The translations under genes were made by a program, and so were the position numbers. Shown piece after piece: positions 3,784-19,830 of a DNA stretch of 24,284 nucleotides; within the stretch, counting starts at the first letter, position 1, and every line of letters begins with the position of its first letter. The notes under the pieces were generated by a model. The model did not search any database, was not told the DNA's origin, and worked only from the letters and a program-made list of their open reading frames with translations. Source of the stretch: Fastidiosibacter lacustris (GTDB taxonomy: Bacteria; Pseudomonadota; Gammaproteobacteria; Francisellales; Francisellaceae); the NCBI RefSeq assembly GCF_003428155.1, contig NZ_QLIR01000024.1, forward strand, positions 1 through 24,284, in the 5' to 3' direction.

Positions 3784-5832
3784 TTGACAGAGTATTATAG
3801 CATTGATATTAAAAAACTATTTTCAGACGCTGGTTTGCACATGCGTGAAGCACAACTTCAGATGATTGAAGCTGTTAAAATAGCACTGGTTAATGATGAA
3901 AAAATTATAATTGAAGCCCCGACGGCAACAGGTAAGAGTTTTGCATATTTATTGGGTGCTCTGCTAGCTAACAAAATGCGATGTGAGCAAGGACATGAAA
4001 AACTTACCATTGTTCTATCAACAGCAACCGTGGCATTGCAAGAGCAATTAATGGATAAAGACTTACCGTTTATTCACAAGCTACTACAAGCACATGATTT
4101 AGCTTTTAGCTATCAGCTAGCAAAAGGGCGTTCACGTTATTTGTGTCCGCGGAAATTGCATAGCCATAGCTTAATAGAAACTGATTTAATTACCGAAGCA
4201 GAAAGTTTAGATAAGCGATTTCAAAAAGATTGGGATGGCGATTTTGATTTATTAGAGGAACCCCTTTCAAAAACACTGATGCAAGAGATATATAATACCA
4301 GTAGCTCATGCTCATTTACTCGTTGTGAATATTATCGCGAATGCCCGTTTTTGATAGCACGTCAAGGCTTAAAAAAAGTAGACATAATTGTTACTAACCA
4401 CAGTTTACTACTATCTCATTTAGATTTAGGAGATGGTTCGATTTTACCTAAATTTGAAAAGAGTATATACATAGTTGATGAATGCCATCATTTACCAGAT
4501 CGAGCGTTAAAGTCTTTGTCAGGTTTTGCATCATTATTGGGTTCTCACACTTGGATTAACGATGTTGATAAGTTATTAAATGCTTTACCAGCAGAACTTG
4601 CGGATAAAACTCGGCGTGAAAATTGGAAGCTTGTATGTACAAACCTCATTCAGCAACTCACCTATATGCAACAACTTATAGATCCACTTTATCGGCAAGC
4701 ACAAAAAGAAGAAACCGTGTGGCGTATCAAACATTTGGACGATGAAATGCTTAAGCTTGCAACAGAAATTAAAACTTCTGCGAGTTTCTATGTTATACAA
4801 TGTCAAAAACTTAAAGATGAGCTCGATAATTTTATTGAAAAAAATGAAATATATTCAGTAAGTAGTTTGGAAAAACAATTTACCCAAATGGGTTTTTTAT
4901 TGGAGCGTGCTCAAAATTTGCAGATGGTATGGTCATTGATGATAAACTCAGCCACTTCCCCACCGATTGCAAAGTGGGTTATTCCACATGATAAAAAAAT
5001 CAAGCAGGAAGAAATCCAAACGGATATATTGGCAACCAGTTTTCAAGATTATGATATTCATGCTTCACCAATTGAAGCAGCATCATTGCTGAAACAAGCA
5101 TTCTGGCAACACGTTCAACACGGGGTGGTATTGTGTTCTGCGACTGTACGCTCATTGGGGAAATTTGATCGATTTTTAAATGCTATAGCGCTTAAAAAAG
5201 AAGCAAAAACGCTGCTCTTGCCCTCACCATTAAATTATGAAAAATCAAAGATGATTATTCCTAATATGAAAAATGAACCAGTACAGCAAGAAAATCATAT
5301 TGATGAAACAGCAAAACTACTTAATGAACTCTATTTAAAGGACTTGCATGAAGGTGCTTTGGTATTGTTTACGAGTATCTATGCAATGGAAAAAGTCTAT
5401 ATGCGTCTTAGTGCTCAACTGAAAAAAATTACCTTAGTTCAAGGAGATCGCTCAAAGCAAGCAATGATTGCCATCCATAAAAAACGCATAGATGCTTTTA
5501 AACCTTCAGTTATTTTTGGTGTAGATAGTTTTTCAGAAGGAGTAGATTTGCCTGGTGCATATTTAACACGCTTAATTATTCATAAACTGCCATTTTCTGT
5601 GCCAACAAATCCGATTGATAAAACGCGCGCTGAGTGGTTAGAATCTATCAATCGCAAGCCATTTATGGATATATCCTTGCCGCAAGCTTCTTTAAAGCTT
5701 ACTCAAATGGTTGGTCGCTTAGTCCGCACTGAGTCGGATGTTGGTGAAGTGATTATTTTGGATAGGCGCTTAAAAACAAAATTTTATGGTAAAGCATTAT
5801 TAGATAATTTGCCACCTTTTCAAATTATTTAG
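3784..5832 (+). CDS. dinG: DinG/YoaA-family ATP-dependent DNA helicase (XPD-like SF2, Fe-S cluster type)
   Basis: Walker A APTATGKSFAYLL and DEAH-type box IVDECHHL. Four cysteines (CPRKL, then SSCSFTRCEYYRECPF) sit where the DinG/XPD 4Fe-4S domain lies. C-terminal motifs FGVDSFSEGVDLPG and QMVGRLVRT. TTG 3784 is the only in-frame start after the upstream TAA at 3766-3768. The N-terminal HMREAQLQMIEAV resembles the DinG/YoaA Q-region. Confidence 0.85.
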   Translation: MTEYYSIDIKKLFSDAGLHMREAQLQMIEAVKIALVNDEKIIIEAPTATGKSFAYLLGALLANKMRCEQGHEKLTIVLSTATVALQEQLMDKDLPFIHKLLQAHDLAFSYQLAKGRSRYLCPRKLHSHSLIETDLITEAESLDKRFQKDWDGDFDLLEEPLSKTLMQEIYNTSSSCSFTRCEYYRECPFLIARQGLKKVDIIVTNHSLLLSHLDLGDGSILPKFEKSIYIVDECHHLPDRALKSLSGFASLLGSHTWINDVDKLLNALPAELADKTRRENWKLVCTNLIQQLTYMQQLIDPLYRQAQKEETVWRIKHLDDEMLKLATEIKTSASFYVIQCQKLKDELDNFIEKNEIYSVSSLEKQFTQMGFLLERAQNLQMVWSLMINSATSPPIAKWVIPHDKKIKQEEIQTDILATSFQDYDIHASPIEAASLLKQAFWQHVQHGVVLCSATVRSLGKFDRFLNAIALKKEAKTLLLPSPLNYEKSKMIIPNMKNEPVQQENHIDETAKLLNELYLKDLHEGALVLFTSIYAMEKVYMRLSAQLKKITLVQGDRSKQAMIAIHKKRIDAFKPSVIFGVDSFSEGVDLPGAYLTRLIIHKLPFSVPTNPIDKTRAEWLESINRKPFMDISLPQASLKLTQMVGRLVRTESDVGEVIILDRRLKTKFYGKALLDNLPPFQII

Positions 5833-6107
5833 AAAAAGGATCGTTTGGATCAGTCTACTCATCCAAGAGCCATTTTTGTCTATTTCATAAAGCACCTCTT
5901 TTATTTAATTAGGATGTTTAATAGTCTAGTTTAGACCGGACAATTCATGTGTTCTTACTTAGGACATTTTATTTATTCTCTACAACTATTAAGACAGTTT
6001 GAGGTAGAGTAATAATTAGTTGTGACCTGCTTCACATAACTTGTTTTATTGATTATATTCATGTCGCTTTTTACATAGTTTTCCATAAACCAATAACTTT
6101 TAAATGC

Positions 6108-6117
6108 GATTACCCTG
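6108..6117 (+). repeat. Left copy of the 10-bp direct repeat GATTACCCTG flanking the low-GC island
   Basis: Exact 10-mer also present at 9981-9990. The upstream context partly matches: TTAAAtgcGATTACCCTG versus TTAAAactGATTACCCTG. Confidence 0.35.
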
Positions 6118-6203
6118 TAAAAGATATAGGGTCTTTGCTTGCGTGGTTGAGTATTAGGAAATATTATAGTAAATTAATTTTCAATTAGGAGGGATATCAC
6201 CGT

Positions 6204-7208
6204 ATGGATAGTATTGAATCAGTTCTTGAATTTTGGCAATTATGTGAATTATCTGATTTTAAAAGATTCAATTGTGCAAAAGAAAACGTCTCCCCTTTAG
6301 ACTTATCACAGATTAATAAATTTAAACAAATAGCTAATGAATATAGCAAATCGAATAACAAGGACTATAGAGTAAAAATAGACAATAAAACAACTAATAT
6401 ATATAAAGTTTATTTAGGACTTATCCAAGCAAAAGAAGCAATAAGATACGTTTACGATGCTTTTAAGAAAAGTGGTTTACTAGGCGAAGATATAGATATT
6501 ATTAATGCACTTGAAAAAGAGTTTGAGAAAATAAAGAAGCAAGATTGTACCTATCTAGCATACCTATATCTTGATCATAATTTGAATATAGTTTCAATTA
6601 AAGGTAATTGTTTTAATATAAATCCTATTTTTTATATATCAGCTATGCTACCTGATAAAAGTAAGTTAAATAATTTTGAACTGAATAACTTTGCAGAGGG
6701 ATATAGTGATGAGTTTAAAATAAAACATGAGGTGATCAATAGAAGCAATACTATTGTTATACCTGATGTTCAAAATCTTCTTAAGATTGGTCAGTATCCA
6801 AATGCTTTAAAGACATTATTATCATGTGATAAGTGTACACATCTATACATTTTTAACGAAACTATTAATGAAATACTTAACATTGCCAATACGTTATCTC
6901 ACCCATGTAGCAAGAATGCCTCTAATATCCTTGATGAAATATCCAAAGTAAAAAACAATCAGATTGAAGAACCTCGTCAATATCCTTATATATGTTTTGC
7001 AGAACGTCGAAGAGAACACTATGAACATTGTCATGAAGAATATTTATTAAACTCAGCAATTAAATTGCCATCGGAACAACCGTTTAGCTTTGTTTTTTTA
7101 TATACCAAGCATGAGTTGAGAAACTTTAGTATAAATCTTCCTATAAATTTATATTTAATCACGTGGTTTGATAAAGAGCTTTTCTATACACCACCGCTTG
7201 TTTCTTAA
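6204..7208 (+). CDS. Hypothetical protein, probably the N-terminal fragment of the downstream helicase reading frame
   Basis: 334-aa ORF with a strong AGGAGGG (6187-6193) upstream of ATG 6204. Very AT-rich, Asn/Lys/Ile-rich composition. No catalytic motif recognised. It ends at a TAA in the same frame as the helicase ORF that follows. Confidence 0.6.
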   Translation: MDSIESVLEFWQLCELSDFKRFNCAKENVSPLDLSQINKFKQIANEYSKSNNKDYRVKIDNKTTNIYKVYLGLIQAKEAIRYVYDAFKKSGLLGEDIDIINALEKEFEKIKKQDCTYLAYLYLDHNLNIVSIKGNCFNINPIFYISAMLPDKSKLNNFELNNFAEGYSDEFKIKHEVINRSNTIVIPDVQNLLKIGQYPNALKTLLSCDKCTHLYIFNETINEILNIANTLSHPCSKNASNILDEISKVKNNQIEEPRQYPYICFAERRREHYEHCHEEYLLNSAIKLPSEQPFSFVFLYTKHELRNFSINLPINLYLITWFDKELFYTPPLVS

Positions 7209-7421
7209 AATAAACCTGTAGATCAAAAAATTTTAGACTCAATATTTCGTCACATAAAAGACAGACTAAATATACCTGAAAATTTTTCATGTATTCAAAA
7301 ACCGTATTTTTTTGCTAAACGATATGAGAATCACAATATTAGACGTATTCATTCAATCGTTAAAACGAGCTTAACGAGTTACTATATTGATTCTCTTCGT
7401 GAAAGACTTAGTAAACTCTCA

Positions 7422-9815
7422 TTGCCATATATTATGGGGAAATCTCAGCGTATTGATGTGAATGATGGCAATATTAATACTAGAAAATCTATCAATGACC
7501 TTAAATATTTTAAACTTGTAAATAGTCGGTGGCCAAATAGTCATGCCCTTTACTATGCACAACAAGCAGCAGTAAACCTTTTTATCTCAAATCATAATAA
7601 ATCAAATGAGAACATATTTAGCATTAATGGTCCTCCAGGTACTGGGAAAACAACACTATTACAAGATGTTATTGCTTATATCGTAACTAAAAGAGTGGAA
7701 AATTATCTCAAGCGTGATGGTAAAATATTTGACAATAATTCTCTACGAGATGATATATGCGGAAAGTACGAGATATTAGTCACTTCTCACAATAATAGCG
7801 CCATTAAAAATATAACTGAGGACTTGCCTCAAGCTAAAAAGATAAACTTTGATTACCTTAAAGCTAGTAAAGAGGATTTTTTGCTTCACGATTGTGCAAA
7901 GAAATTCTATGACTCTATTATAACTAATAAAGAACAAAAGGATGAAGGCGAAGACAATAAAAAAGACGACCGTACATATTGGAGCTTCATTGCTTTAACA
8001 TTAGGAAAAAAGGATAACTTTACAAAATTTAAAACTGCCTTTCAATCTGTGCTTGACTATATTGAAGATGATAGAAACCTGCACAATGAAAGACTAAGAG
8101 ATCATCAGTATTTGACACATAGGATGGCTAGATTAAAAAGTGAATTCTTAGCTATAAAATCAGAAATTATAAGTATCAATAAATTATTTGAGCAACTATC
8201 AGGTCTGCACGAACTAGATAAGAAAATAAACACCCTACAAACTTCGATTAAAGATACTTCTAGCGGTATAGCATCATTGAAATCAGAAATTCAGAAGCAT
8301 AAGAGTAGAGCCGATGAGCTAAATGCAGAGAGTGTTTTTTTAAATGAACAGATTAAGATCACAAATCATCGCTTAGTGGTGAAAGAGACAGCGATAGGGA
8401 GTTTTGGTTTTTTTGCAAAAATTTTCAAAAATAGTGCGTTTAATAAACTTGTTCATGAAAAATCTTCTATAGCAGCAACACTAGACAATCATTTAAGCCA
8501 ACTGCATAAAGTAAATAGTGAAAATAAAGAAACCAAAAAGCAACTAGATGACTTGAGCAGCAAGCTAAGCCAAAATATATCTATTCAAAAGGCGAAAGGA
8601 AACGAGTGTCAAAAAATGATAAATCTTAAATCCTTTCTTCTCAAGAAAAGTGAGGATTGCAACATTAATAATGAGAACTATTATCGGCTTTGTGAAGAAA
8701 ATATACAAAAAAATAGCCTGTTTAATAAACCTAATTATCTTGAGAAAAAAGCACAGCTATTTAAGGTAAGTATCCAAATTAGTGAAGTTATTTTCTTGCT
8801 CAACATTGATAAATTTGCCAATGAAATAAAGTTTTACCATGATAATTATGCAAAAAGAGATTTGTGTAACTCCGATAAAATAAAACTACAAAAAGCTTTC
8901 TCTGCTATTTTTTATGTTTTTCCAGTTATATCAACCACGCTAGCATCATCTTATACGATGCTCCGCAATATATCTCAGTATGGTACTTTGCTATGTGATG
9001 AATCAGGTCAAGCCACCCCGCAATCTTTAATTGGTTCTTTAAATAGAGCAAATAATGCTTTAATTATTGGAGATCCACTGCAGATAAAACCCGTATTTAC
9101 AGCTCCAGAGATTGTAATAAAAATACTTCAAGAAAATTTTAATATTGATGATATATATTCACCTTTTGTATCATCAGCACAACAACTCGCAGATAATGCT
9201 AATATATATGGCTCATTTTATACTGTTGAAAATAAGAAAGTATGGGTTGGAATGCCGTTAGTTGTTCATACTCGCTGTGTAAATCCAATGTTTAACATAT
9301 CAAATACAATTTCGTATAATCAAAAAATGGTTCTAGCAACACCACCTATTAAGAGTGAGGATAAAATAAACTCCCTTCCTAAGAGTGGTTGGATTAATGT
9401 TTATTCAGAGACTGAAGACTTTAGAAATAACGGATCAACAAAAGAAGAAACTGAACTGTTCAATTTTATTGAGCTATATAAGGAAGAATTAGGAGAAGAA
9501 TACTTTATCATCTCGCCGTTTAATGCTATATATGATATTTCTTGTGGCTCACGTGAAAGTAAATTAGGGACTGTTCATACTTTTCAAGGACAGCAAAGTG
9601 ATGTCGTTTTTATAGTGCTTGGTGGAAAGAATCCAGGTTCCAACGCATGGGTTGCTTCAACAGCCAATATACTTAATGTTGCCATTACAAGGGCAAAAAA
9701 AAGAGCTTATATTTTTGGAGACTACAATGTATGGAAAAAGTATAATTATTTCAATGTTGCGGCAGACAATTTAAAACCAATTAACTATAAAAATAAAAGC
9801 CTTATAACATATTGA
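7422..9815 (+). CDS. Upf1/DNA2/NAM7-like superfamily 1B helicase (AAA_11/AAA_12 type) with a large coiled-coil insertion
   Basis: Q-like YYAQQAAVNLF; motif I INGPPGTGKTT (GPPGTGKTT at nt 7629-7655); Ia ILVTSHNNSAIKNI; II LLCDESGQ (DESGQ at nt 8997-9011); III LIIGDPLQIKPV; V VHTFQGQQSDVVFIVLG; VI LNVAITRAKKRAYIFGD. The frame is already open from 7209, 71 codons upstream of the first candidate start (TTG 7422, ATG 7434). Neither start has a Shine-Dalgarno sequence. Confidence 0.85.
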   Translation: MPYIMGKSQRIDVNDGNINTRKSINDLKYFKLVNSRWPNSHALYYAQQAAVNLFISNHNKSNENIFSINGPPGTGKTTLLQDVIAYIVTKRVENYLKRDGKIFDNNSLRDDICGKYEILVTSHNNSAIKNITEDLPQAKKINFDYLKASKEDFLLHDCAKKFYDSIITNKEQKDEGEDNKKDDRTYWSFIALTLGKKDNFTKFKTAFQSVLDYIEDDRNLHNERLRDHQYLTHRMARLKSEFLAIKSEIISINKLFEQLSGLHELDKKINTLQTSIKDTSSGIASLKSEIQKHKSRADELNAESVFLNEQIKITNHRLVVKETAIGSFGFFAKIFKNSAFNKLVHEKSSIAATLDNHLSQLHKVNSENKETKKQLDDLSSKLSQNISIQKAKGNECQKMINLKSFLLKKSEDCNINNENYYRLCEENIQKNSLFNKPNYLEKKAQLFKVSIQISEVIFLLNIDKFANEIKFYHDNYAKRDLCNSDKIKLQKAFSAIFYVFPVISTTLASSYTMLRNISQYGTLLCDESGQATPQSLIGSLNRANNALIIGDPLQIKPVFTAPEIVIKILQENFNIDDIYSPFVSSAQQLADNANIYGSFYTVENKKVWVGMPLVVHTRCVNPMFNISNTISYNQKMVLATPPIKSEDKINSLPKSGWINVYSETEDFRNNGSTKEETELFNFIELYKEELGEEYFIISPFNAIYDISCGSRESKLGTVHTFQGQQSDVVFIVLGGKNPGSNAWVASTANILNVAITRAKKRAYIFGDYNVWKKYNYFNVAADNLKPINYKNKSLITY

Positions 9816-11962: not shown

Positions 11963-12715
11963 ATGTTGTTAGAAATTAAAAACCTACATACAAAAGTTGA
12001 AAATAAAGCGATTTTAAAAGGTATTGACCTTAGGATCAATCCAGGTGAAGTACATGCGATTATGGGACCAAATGGTGCTGGTAAAAGTACGCTAGGTAAT
12101 ATACTAGCAGGAAAACCTGGTTATAAAGTAACAGAGGGAGAAGTGCTATTAGAGGGTAAGAACCTTTTGGAACTTGACGCATCTGAGCGTGCGCATGTAG
12201 GTGTATTTTTAAGCTTCCAGTATCCTGTTGAAATCCCAGGGGTAAGTAATACGCAATTCTTAAAGACAGCGGTTAATAGTATGCGTAAGGCACAAAACCA
12301 GTCTGAGCTTGATGCAATGAGTTTTATGAAAAAGCTGCGTGCAAATATGGAAATTCTAGAAATGGATCAAAAGTATATGAAACGTGGTGTTAATGATGGG
12401 TTTTCAGGTGGTGAAAAAAAGCGTAATGAGATGTTACAAATGATGATGTTAGAGCCAAAAATTTGTATTCTTGATGAGACGGATTCAGGACTTGACATTG
12501 ACGCTTTGCAGGTTGTATCAAAGGGTGCTAACCATATGCGTGATCAAAAGCGAGGATTTATTGTCATCACTCATTACCAGCGCCTATTAAACTATATAGT
12601 GCCAGATTTTGTTCATGTGCTCGCAGATGGCAAGATTGTAAAATCGGGCAATCGTTCGTTGGCATTAGAGCTTGAAGATAAAGGCTATGCTTGGATTAAT
12701 GAACAAGGAGTTTAA
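11963..12715 (+). CDS. sufC: Fe-S cluster assembly ATPase SufC
   Basis: 250 aa. Walker A GPNGAGKST, signature FSGGEKKRNE, Walker B ICILDETDSGLD, H-loop ITHYQRLL. Positioned between sufB and sufD. Confidence 0.95.
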   Translation: MLLEIKNLHTKVENKAILKGIDLRINPGEVHAIMGPNGAGKSTLGNILAGKPGYKVTEGEVLLEGKNLLELDASERAHVGVFLSFQYPVEIPGVSNTQFLKTAVNSMRKAQNQSELDAMSFMKKLRANMEILEMDQKYMKRGVNDGFSGGEKKRNEMLQMMMLEPKICILDETDSGLDIDALQVVSKGANHMRDQKRGFIVITHYQRLLNYIVPDFVHVLADGKIVKSGNRSLALELEDKGYAWINEQGV

Positions 12716-18972: not shown

Positions 18973-19830
18973 ATGACTGTTAAAGTAGCGGTTATTCAAT
19001 CAAAATTCAGTAATGACGTTGATAGTAATATCATACACTTAAATCAAAGAGTTGTTGAGGCAGCAGTAAGAGGTGCACAAATTATTTTGATGCCTGAATT
19101 GCCGTCATATTGGTATTTTTGTAAACGCCAAGATCCAGCGTATTTTGCTATGGCAGAAACTTTAGAGGAGTGTAAACTTATTGGTTTAATGCGAAAAATT
19201 GCTAAGGAATATCAAGTAGTATTGCCAACAAGCTTCTTTGAAAAAGTTGGAAACACATGTTTTAACTCTGTGGCGATGATTGATGCAGATGGAAGTATTT
19301 TAGGTATATATCGTAAATCTCATATTCCTGATGGTGCAGGTTATCAAGAGAAATATTATTTCTCACCAGGAAAATCAGGTTTTAAAGTATGGCAGACGAG
19401 ATATGCTAAAGTAGGCTGCGCAATTTGTTGGGATCAATGGTTTCCAGAAGCAGCAAGGATTATGGCGCTTAAAGGTGCAGATTTGCTTTTATATCCAACT
19501 GCAATTGGTAGTGAGCCACATTTACCAGACTATGATTCAAAAGATCACTGGCAGCGAACAATGCAAGGACACGCAGCAGCAAACATGGTTCCTGTTCTTG
19601 CTGCAAATCGCTATGGGGAAGAAAGTGATAGTAGCATCCAGACAACTTTTTATGGCAGTTCATTTATTACAGATGGCTTTGGACAGAAAATAGCAGAATC
19701 ACCGCGCCAAGGTGACGATATTCTCTATGCGAGCTTCAATTTGAAAAAGCTTCAAGAAAACCGCTTTGCATGGGGTCTATTCCGTGATAGGAGACCTGAG
19801 CTATATCATGATATTACGGCGGAAGCATAA
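18973..19830 (+). CDS. aguB: N-carbamoylputrescine amidase (nitrilase/CN-hydrolase superfamily)
   Basis: VAVIQ...MPELPSYWYFC (catalytic Glu), YRKSHIPD (Lys), AICWDQWFPEAAR (Cys). The 285-aa length and position after aguA fit the family. Confidence 0.92.
   Translation: MTVKVAVIQSKFSNDVDSNIIHLNQRVVEAAVRGAQIILMPELPSYWYFCKRQDPAYFAMAETLEECKLIGLMRKIAKEYQVVLPTSFFEKVGNTCFNSVAMIDADGSILGIYRKSHIPDGAGYQEKYYFSPGKSGFKVWQTRYAKVGCAICWDQWFPEAARIMALKGADLLLYPTAIGSEPHLPDYDSKDHWQRTMQGHAAANMVPVLAANRYGEESDSSIQTTFYGSSFITDGFGQKIAESPRQGDDILYASFNLKKLQENRFAWGLFRDRRPELYHDITAEA

Follow-up and report, generated by a model that had tools for sequence, protein, structure and literature searches.

We report on a 24,284-nucleotide stretch of the Fastidiosibacter lacustris genome (contig NZ_QLIR01000024.1, positions 1 to 24,284; hereafter the window), in which the gene for a predicted Upf1-like helicase is interrupted by one in-frame TAA codon. 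Two open reading frames (ORFs), encoding 334 and 797 amino acids, lie on either side of the interruption. Comparison with relatives indicates that they are two halves of a single gene with 1203 sense codons, now disrupted, and that the 71 codons stranded between them are leftover conserved coding sequence. We consider it probable that the stop is a real nonsense mutation of recent date, and hence that this accessory gene, acquired by horizontal transfer, is now a young pseudogene.

One reading frame with a single internal stop

The upstream ORF (6204-7208) begins with ATG behind a strong Shine-Dalgarno sequence, AGGAGGG, and a check on the sequence places it in one shared frame with the downstream ORF (7422-9815; Table 1). 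Translated from 6204 to 9815, this frame comprises 1204 codons. Apart from the TGA that closes it (9813-9815), the TAA at 7206-7208 is its only stop, and the 1203 codons hold no frameshift either. The 71 codons of the intervening segment include neither a stop nor any in-frame ATG, GTG or TTG, and the alternative frames are interrupted there by TAA at 7211 and TAG at 7219. Given the base composition of the gene itself, the probability of a stop is 0.083 per codon, and a run of 71 open codons has a probability of 0.002. The gene's two wrong frames remain open for at most 52 and 39 codons. The first-pass annotation of this DNA, made from the sequence alone, had described the same frame arrangement and had roughly estimated a chance run of this length at well under 1%, and both statements hold.

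The first in-frame start codons downstream of the stop are TTG 7422 and ATG 7434. No Shine-Dalgarno sequence of the GGAG/AGGA type was found in the 20 nucleotides before TTG 7422 (GAAAGACTTAGTAAACTCTCA) or in the 20 nucleotides before ATG 7434 (AAACTCTCATTGCCATATATT), again as first described. Six other ORFs in the window terminate at TAA, including the three (2055-2057, 12713-12715 and 19828-19830) that had already been named as genuine stops, and TAG and TGA likewise serve as stops. Since all three codons terminate other ORFs of the window, the standard genetic code applies; stop-codon recoding by an alternative code was considered and is contradicted by the six other ORFs that TAA terminates. 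Scans of the window against Rfam and for transfer RNAs gave no match, and a scan for internal promoters was uninformative, with 26 promoter-like sites versus 23.3 expected by chance.

Table 1. Coordinates of the interrupted helicase gene and associated features in the window
Feature	Position	Strand	Basis or remark
Shine-Dalgarno sequence AGGAGGG	6187..6193	+	Read from the sequence
Codons 1-334, N-terminal domain of unknown function	6204..7205	+	Separate 334-aa protein at NCBI (P0122)
In-frame TAA, sole lesion in the gene	7206..7208	+	Sense column in 16 relatives; T311 of P0002
71 stranded codons (residues 336-406), no start codon	7209..7421	+	Invariant residues; MkoC match begins here
Predicted Upf1-like superfamily 1 helicase core with long coiled-coil insertion	7422..9815	+	Pfam, PADLOC, PDB, Foldseek; P0001, P0121
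Strain-specific 3763-bp segment with the helicase gene only, between dinG-like gene and Rrf2/sufB	6046..9808	+	blastn versus L084

Relatives carry one continuous protein

The fused product, with the stop written as X, was searched against about 5.8 billion proteins. This search returned 16 relatives (P0002-P0017), all of them single proteins of 1110-1269 amino acids, which are 33-44% identical to the fused product by BLASTP (35-46% in the multiple alignment) and cover 98-99% of it, with the exception of P0012 (71%). The alignment crosses the stop without an insertion or deletion on either side: the window reads ...FYTPPLVS-X-NKPVDQKILDSIF... where P0002, the closest intact relative, reads ...FYLPAITS-T-QSPIDEKILNEIF.... 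In the 16 relatives the stop column is occupied by T, S, S, S, T, T, T, I, K, S, C, T, S, S, A and S, and is thus mostly Ser/Thr. The stranded segment also contributes the SFYIDALxE motif, whose residues S392, Y394, L398 and E400 are invariant in the family. Met411, encoded by ATG 7434, corresponds to R, N, K or E in the relatives and is hence not conserved.

The N-terminal part tells the same story when taken on its own. It shares 24-42% identity with the N-termini of the 1110-1269-amino-acid relatives, and an exhaustive HMMER search with the 334-amino-acid ORF alone (1.84 billion representative proteins, E<=0.001) gave 16 matches including the query. Eleven of these are the N-termini of proteins of 1110-1181 amino acids; besides the query, there remain two damaged copies and two matches that are weak and partial. 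Neither search yielded a relative that is split at the position of the stop.

The 71 stranded codons carry invariant residues, the match to the MkoC profile described below starts inside them, and an open run of this length has a chance probability of only 0.002, and for these reasons we read them as coding. The first-pass annotation had proposed one helicase gene split by a single nonsense codon and had looked to orthologues for a decision; these turn out to be single proteins with a conserved counterpart of 7209-7421 and a sense residue in place of the stop, which bears the proposal out.

The break falls within a predicted folded region

An AlphaFold2 model of P0002 (predicted local distance difference test score, pLDDT, 85.7; predicted template modelling score, pTM, 0.76) allowed the stop to be placed on a structure. 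The stop column corresponds to T311, within a predicted strand formed by residues 308-314. Residues 312-388, the equivalent of the stranded codons, are modelled as strands and helices, and most of their 10-residue blocks have a pLDDT of 78-94, a single one being at 59. The break is therefore predicted to lie within a folded region and not in a flexible linker, and its position inside a predicted β-strand makes a designed two-protein split unlikely. On the same model, the 334-amino-acid product would end within a folded unit; a product restarted downstream would miss about 75 conserved residues.

A Upf1-like helicase with a distinct N-terminal domain

The downstream part of the gene matches Pfam AAA_11 and AAA_12 above their gathering scores, and a profile search of PDB sequences with this part returned Sen1, IGHMBP2 and Upf1. 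Foldseek with the full P0002 model likewise returned Senataxin, Upf1, IGHMBP2, Aquarius and ZNFX1. The motifs GPPGTGKT (476-483), CDESGQA (931-937) and VAITRAKK (1159-1166), which represent Walker A, motif II (DExx) and motif VI (TRAK/R), are invariant throughout the family. These matches identify the predicted protein as a Upf1-like helicase of superfamily 1B. It shares the helicase core fold and motifs with Upf1, Senataxin and IGHMBP2 (Foldseek E-values of 3e-13 to 1e-9), yet it is bacterial, carries other accessory domains and is just 10-19% identical to them. Among the accessory parts is a coiled-coil insertion of ~200 residues in the first RecA domain, seen as long helices at 585-768 of the P0002 model and backed by matches to the PI3K p85 coiled coil.

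The N-terminal domain gave no match in Pfam, PADLOC or a PDB sequence search, even with the family profile. The AlphaFold model of the 334-amino-acid ORF has a pLDDT of 74, and its top 14 Foldseek matches in the PDB are all PIN domains (SMG6, SMG5, Nmd4, VapC, Utp24). These matches are weak, with E-values of 2.5e-3 to 0.04 and template modelling scores of 0.16-0.28 when normalised to the query and 0.29-0.57 when normalised to the target. Within the domain, M1, W11, C14, E15, G72, I80, T116, Y117, N140, P141, F143 and N315 are invariant; with just one acidic residue among them, the set of four acidic catalytic residues of PIN domains is not conserved. We therefore treat the likeness to PIN domains as a weak, model-based lead only. 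SMG6, SMG5 and Nmd4 are partners of eukaryotic Upf1.

Relation to the Mokosh defence systems

The best PADLOC match of the window protein is MkoC of Mokosh type II (2.8e-62, profile positions 159-949 of 1136), and the intact orthologues match the same profile at 1e-63 to 1e-68. The match starts already at the tenth stranded codon. Mokosh systems combine a Upf1-like helicase with a PLD nuclease and consist of two genes in type I and of one gene, with the PLD domain at the C-terminus, in type II (bioRxiv 10.1101/2022.05.11.491447). The window gene resembles type II in its Upf1-like (COG1112) helicase and in being a single large gene that stands alone in variable, mobile-element contexts. It differs in having no PLD domain and in possessing the N-terminal domain of ~330 amino acids and the coiled-coil insertion of ~200 residues. 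The window protein and five orthologues match MkoC only from ~121/194 to ~950 of its 1136 positions, leaving ~950-1136 unmatched; no Pfam PLDc match was obtained, and an HxKxxxxD (HKD) motif is not conserved in the 17 sequences. Membership in Mokosh type II was thus rejected on the absence of the PLD domain. By its helicase the gene is a relative of MkoC, yet by definition it is no Mokosh system.

The first-pass annotation had called the locus a defence gene. The strong helicase match to MkoC and the occurrence of the relatives in mobile-element and defence-type contexts speak for this label, whereas the absence of the defining PLD nuclease speaks against it, so that it can be retained in part only.

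A strain-specific gene at a variable spot

Contig JAMBMW010000009.1 (L084) of 'Candidatus Nebulobacter yamunensis' is collinear with the window by blastn, with flanks that are 99.8% (left) and 99.3% (right) identical. The average nucleotide identity between 'Ca. Nebulobacter' and the free-living F. lacustris SYSU HZH-2 (QLIR00000000) is 99.38% (PMC9837558). The 3763 base pairs (bp) at 6046-9808 of the window are replaced in this contig (8841-9359) by an unrelated segment of 519 bp, and on the right the junction lies in the final codons of the helicase gene, where both sequences share ATATTGAAA. The 3763-bp segment has a guanine-plus-cytosine (GC) content of 30.6%, compared to 35.5-36.1% in the flanks. 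Given that the segment is absent where the flanks are 99.3-99.8% identical, the helicase gene is strain-specific accessory cargo in a spot of variable content, flanked by the dinG-like gene and the Rrf2-suf operon. The 519-bp segment holds an ORF of 62 amino acids ending in ...IPKSWVVERSFA*, which by its sequence looks like a C-terminal fragment of an IS5-family transposase.

The intact orthologues, too, are lone genes in variable, mobile-element contexts: the one from Aliarcobacter lanthieri lies on a conjugative element that also carries integrase and Abi_2 genes, and others have unrelated neighbourhoods. SufB of the window is closest to relatives from Francisellaceae/Fastidiosibacteraceae.

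Upstream of the segment, the DinG-like helicase (3784-5832) matches the PADLOC model typeIV_DinG, which is associated with type IV CRISPR, at 2.3e-111. Given that it is conserved in both strains and has no cas genes nearby, it is probably a housekeeping DinG and no defence component.

Age of the lesion and other damaged members of the family

The lesion looks recent, because no further stop or frameshift has accumulated in the 1203 codons. We also counted private changes at otherwise invariant columns in a leave-one-out comparison, in which the window gene has 9 in 162 versus 4-7 in other lone lineages; this excess is not significant (Poisson P about 0.15). Six of the private substitutions, located between nucleotides ~7806 and 9645, are non-conservative and affect sites invariant in the 16 relatives (E535K, E962K, R1023T, K1107N, E1131Q and K1147N). 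Some of the private changes lie in or near what we take, by reference to Upf1, to be helicase motifs Ia, III, IV and V; E535K, for instance, belongs to motif Ia and E1131Q to motif V. As a sign of relaxed constraint, these changes would be a faint hint at most.

Damage is not confined to the window gene. It has arisen independently in three lineages, as a nonsense codon here, a frameshift in L086 and an internal deletion in L087. In L086, P0019 (866 amino acids; 5001-8380) is followed by an AAA_12 ORF of 241 amino acids in a different frame, and tblastn with P0002 locates the frameshift near 7556-7589; L086 is a Logan assembly, in which a sequencing error is possible. The L086 gene lies between RAMP/CHP04423 genes and cas1, adjoining a type III-like CRISPR-Cas locus. 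P0129 (377 amino acids; L087 5001-6134, also L088) is an in-frame internal-deletion derivative, which links residues ~4-183 of the N-terminal domain directly to the C-terminal ~200 residues (AAA_12). This derivative is present on 7 contigs, near genes for MobC/NikA-like proteins, a topoisomerase and a giant SNF2 protein, a context resembling that of a conjugative element.

Discussion

The sequence of events that we consider most plausible is a simple one. A low-GC cassette carrying just this gene would have entered by horizontal transfer between the dinG-like gene and the Rrf2-suf operon, and one base substitution would then have changed a sense codon to TAA at 7206-7208. Given the Ser/Thr-rich column, the Ser codon TCA is the simplest guess for the original. 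Ribosomes recruited by the strong Shine-Dalgarno sequence would now produce just the 334-amino-acid N-terminal fragment, and would make little or no helicase, since the next start codons in frame lie 216-228 nucleotides downstream and lack a Shine-Dalgarno sequence. The locus shares with nonsense pseudogenes of bacterial accessory and defence genes a single premature stop opposed to full-length orthologues, as well as a strain-specific gene of foreign composition in a pseudogene-rich host lineage. It differs from them in nothing essential, except that no close relative is at hand here to date the lesion. Among the four options listed by the first-pass annotation (recent nonsense mutation, sequencing or assembly error, readthrough and a two-polypeptide arrangement), a recent nonsense mutation remains the best, there being no other lesion in the gene.

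Several observations weigh against this interpretation. The searched 5.8 billion proteins include no relative above 46% identity from which the ancestral codon or the age of the lesion could be read; a scan of GTDB genomes for closer relatives gave, among the matches listed, only distant helicases. Both protein clusters that represent the two halves derive from one contig of a single assembly, and a metagenome scan with a 36-mer across the stop found no match. In addition, a truncated helicase may be made at a low level from TTG 7422 or ATG 7434.

The dependence on a single assembly leads directly to the question of whether the TAA is a wrong consensus base in what is an intact gene of 1203 codons. 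The gene has exactly one lesion in 3.6 kb and otherwise keeps the motifs that are invariant in the family, as an intact gene would. The lesion is, however, a substitution and no homopolymer indel, and substitution errors in the consensus are rare at ~100x; the coverage reported for the SYSU HZH-2 assembly is 100x (PMC9837558). Moreover, the lineage is rich in predicted pseudogenes, of which F. lacustris has 129 among 1914 ORFs (about 7%) and 'Ca. Nebulobacter' 191 among 1986 (PMC9837558), and other members of the family are disrupted as well. We consequently regard an error as unlikely and infer that the stop is truly present in the cell.

Less likely still is a functional arrangement of two polypeptides, in which the 334-amino-acid protein would act alongside a helicase restarted at TTG 7422 or ATG 7434. 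Helicase and effector modules occur both split and fused in known systems, as in Mokosh types I and II (bioRxiv 10.1101/2022.05.11.491447), and more distant helicase relatives begin to match the fused protein only around residues 336-390, which makes the N-terminal domain separable as a module across the family. NCBI also annotates two coding sequences. This arrangement would nevertheless leave the 71 codons without a start and the helicase without a Shine-Dalgarno sequence, rely at ATG 7434 on a methionine that relatives do not share, delete the invariant SFYIDALxE motif and cut a predicted β-strand of a well-modelled region, and it is found in no relative; it is accordingly disfavoured, and we would be surprised to see it confirmed. 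The least probable of the options, to which we give next to no weight, is programmed or leaky readthrough of the TAA yielding some full-length protein. The wholly open and intact frame downstream would permit it, but the same codon is the ordinary terminator of six other ORFs in the window, no RNA family was found there, and the relatives carry a sense codon at this position. TAA is also the least leaky of the bacterial stop codons, and we know of no mechanism for its recoding in bacteria with the standard code; both points count against readthrough.

With a nonsense mutation as the favoured explanation, the two-protein public annotation is a gene-calling artefact. NCBI nr and UniRef hold the halves as separate entries of 334 amino acids (P0122) and 797 amino acids (P0121, from TTG 7422), a second gene call starts the helicase half at ATG 7434 (793 amino acids), and neither half is marked as disrupted in the database data examined. 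Domain and family analyses that use the 334- and 797-amino-acid entries would be misled.

A more speculative possibility, which we regard as doubtful, is that the family constitutes an undescribed single-gene immune or anti-mobile-element system, and that the stop was favoured by selection because the gene is costly, and did not arise through random decay. The features behind this idea are an N-terminal domain that is possibly PIN-like and non-catalytic, a Upf1-like helicase with a coiled-coil insertion, and the lack of PLD. The family is also very rare, with 14 true-looking members among the 1.84 billion representative proteins, and three of its lineages are damaged independently.

The finding itself is an ordinary one and opens no new mechanism. 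Its interest is modest and lies in the rarity of the family, its MkoC-like architecture devoid of PLD, and the two other damaged members. For F. lacustris, the locus would add one more defence-like helicase gene that was acquired horizontally and switched off soon after in a pseudogene-rich lineage, and the helicase cassette is among the few differences in gene content between this free-living bacterium and the endosymbiotic 'Ca. Nebulobacter'.

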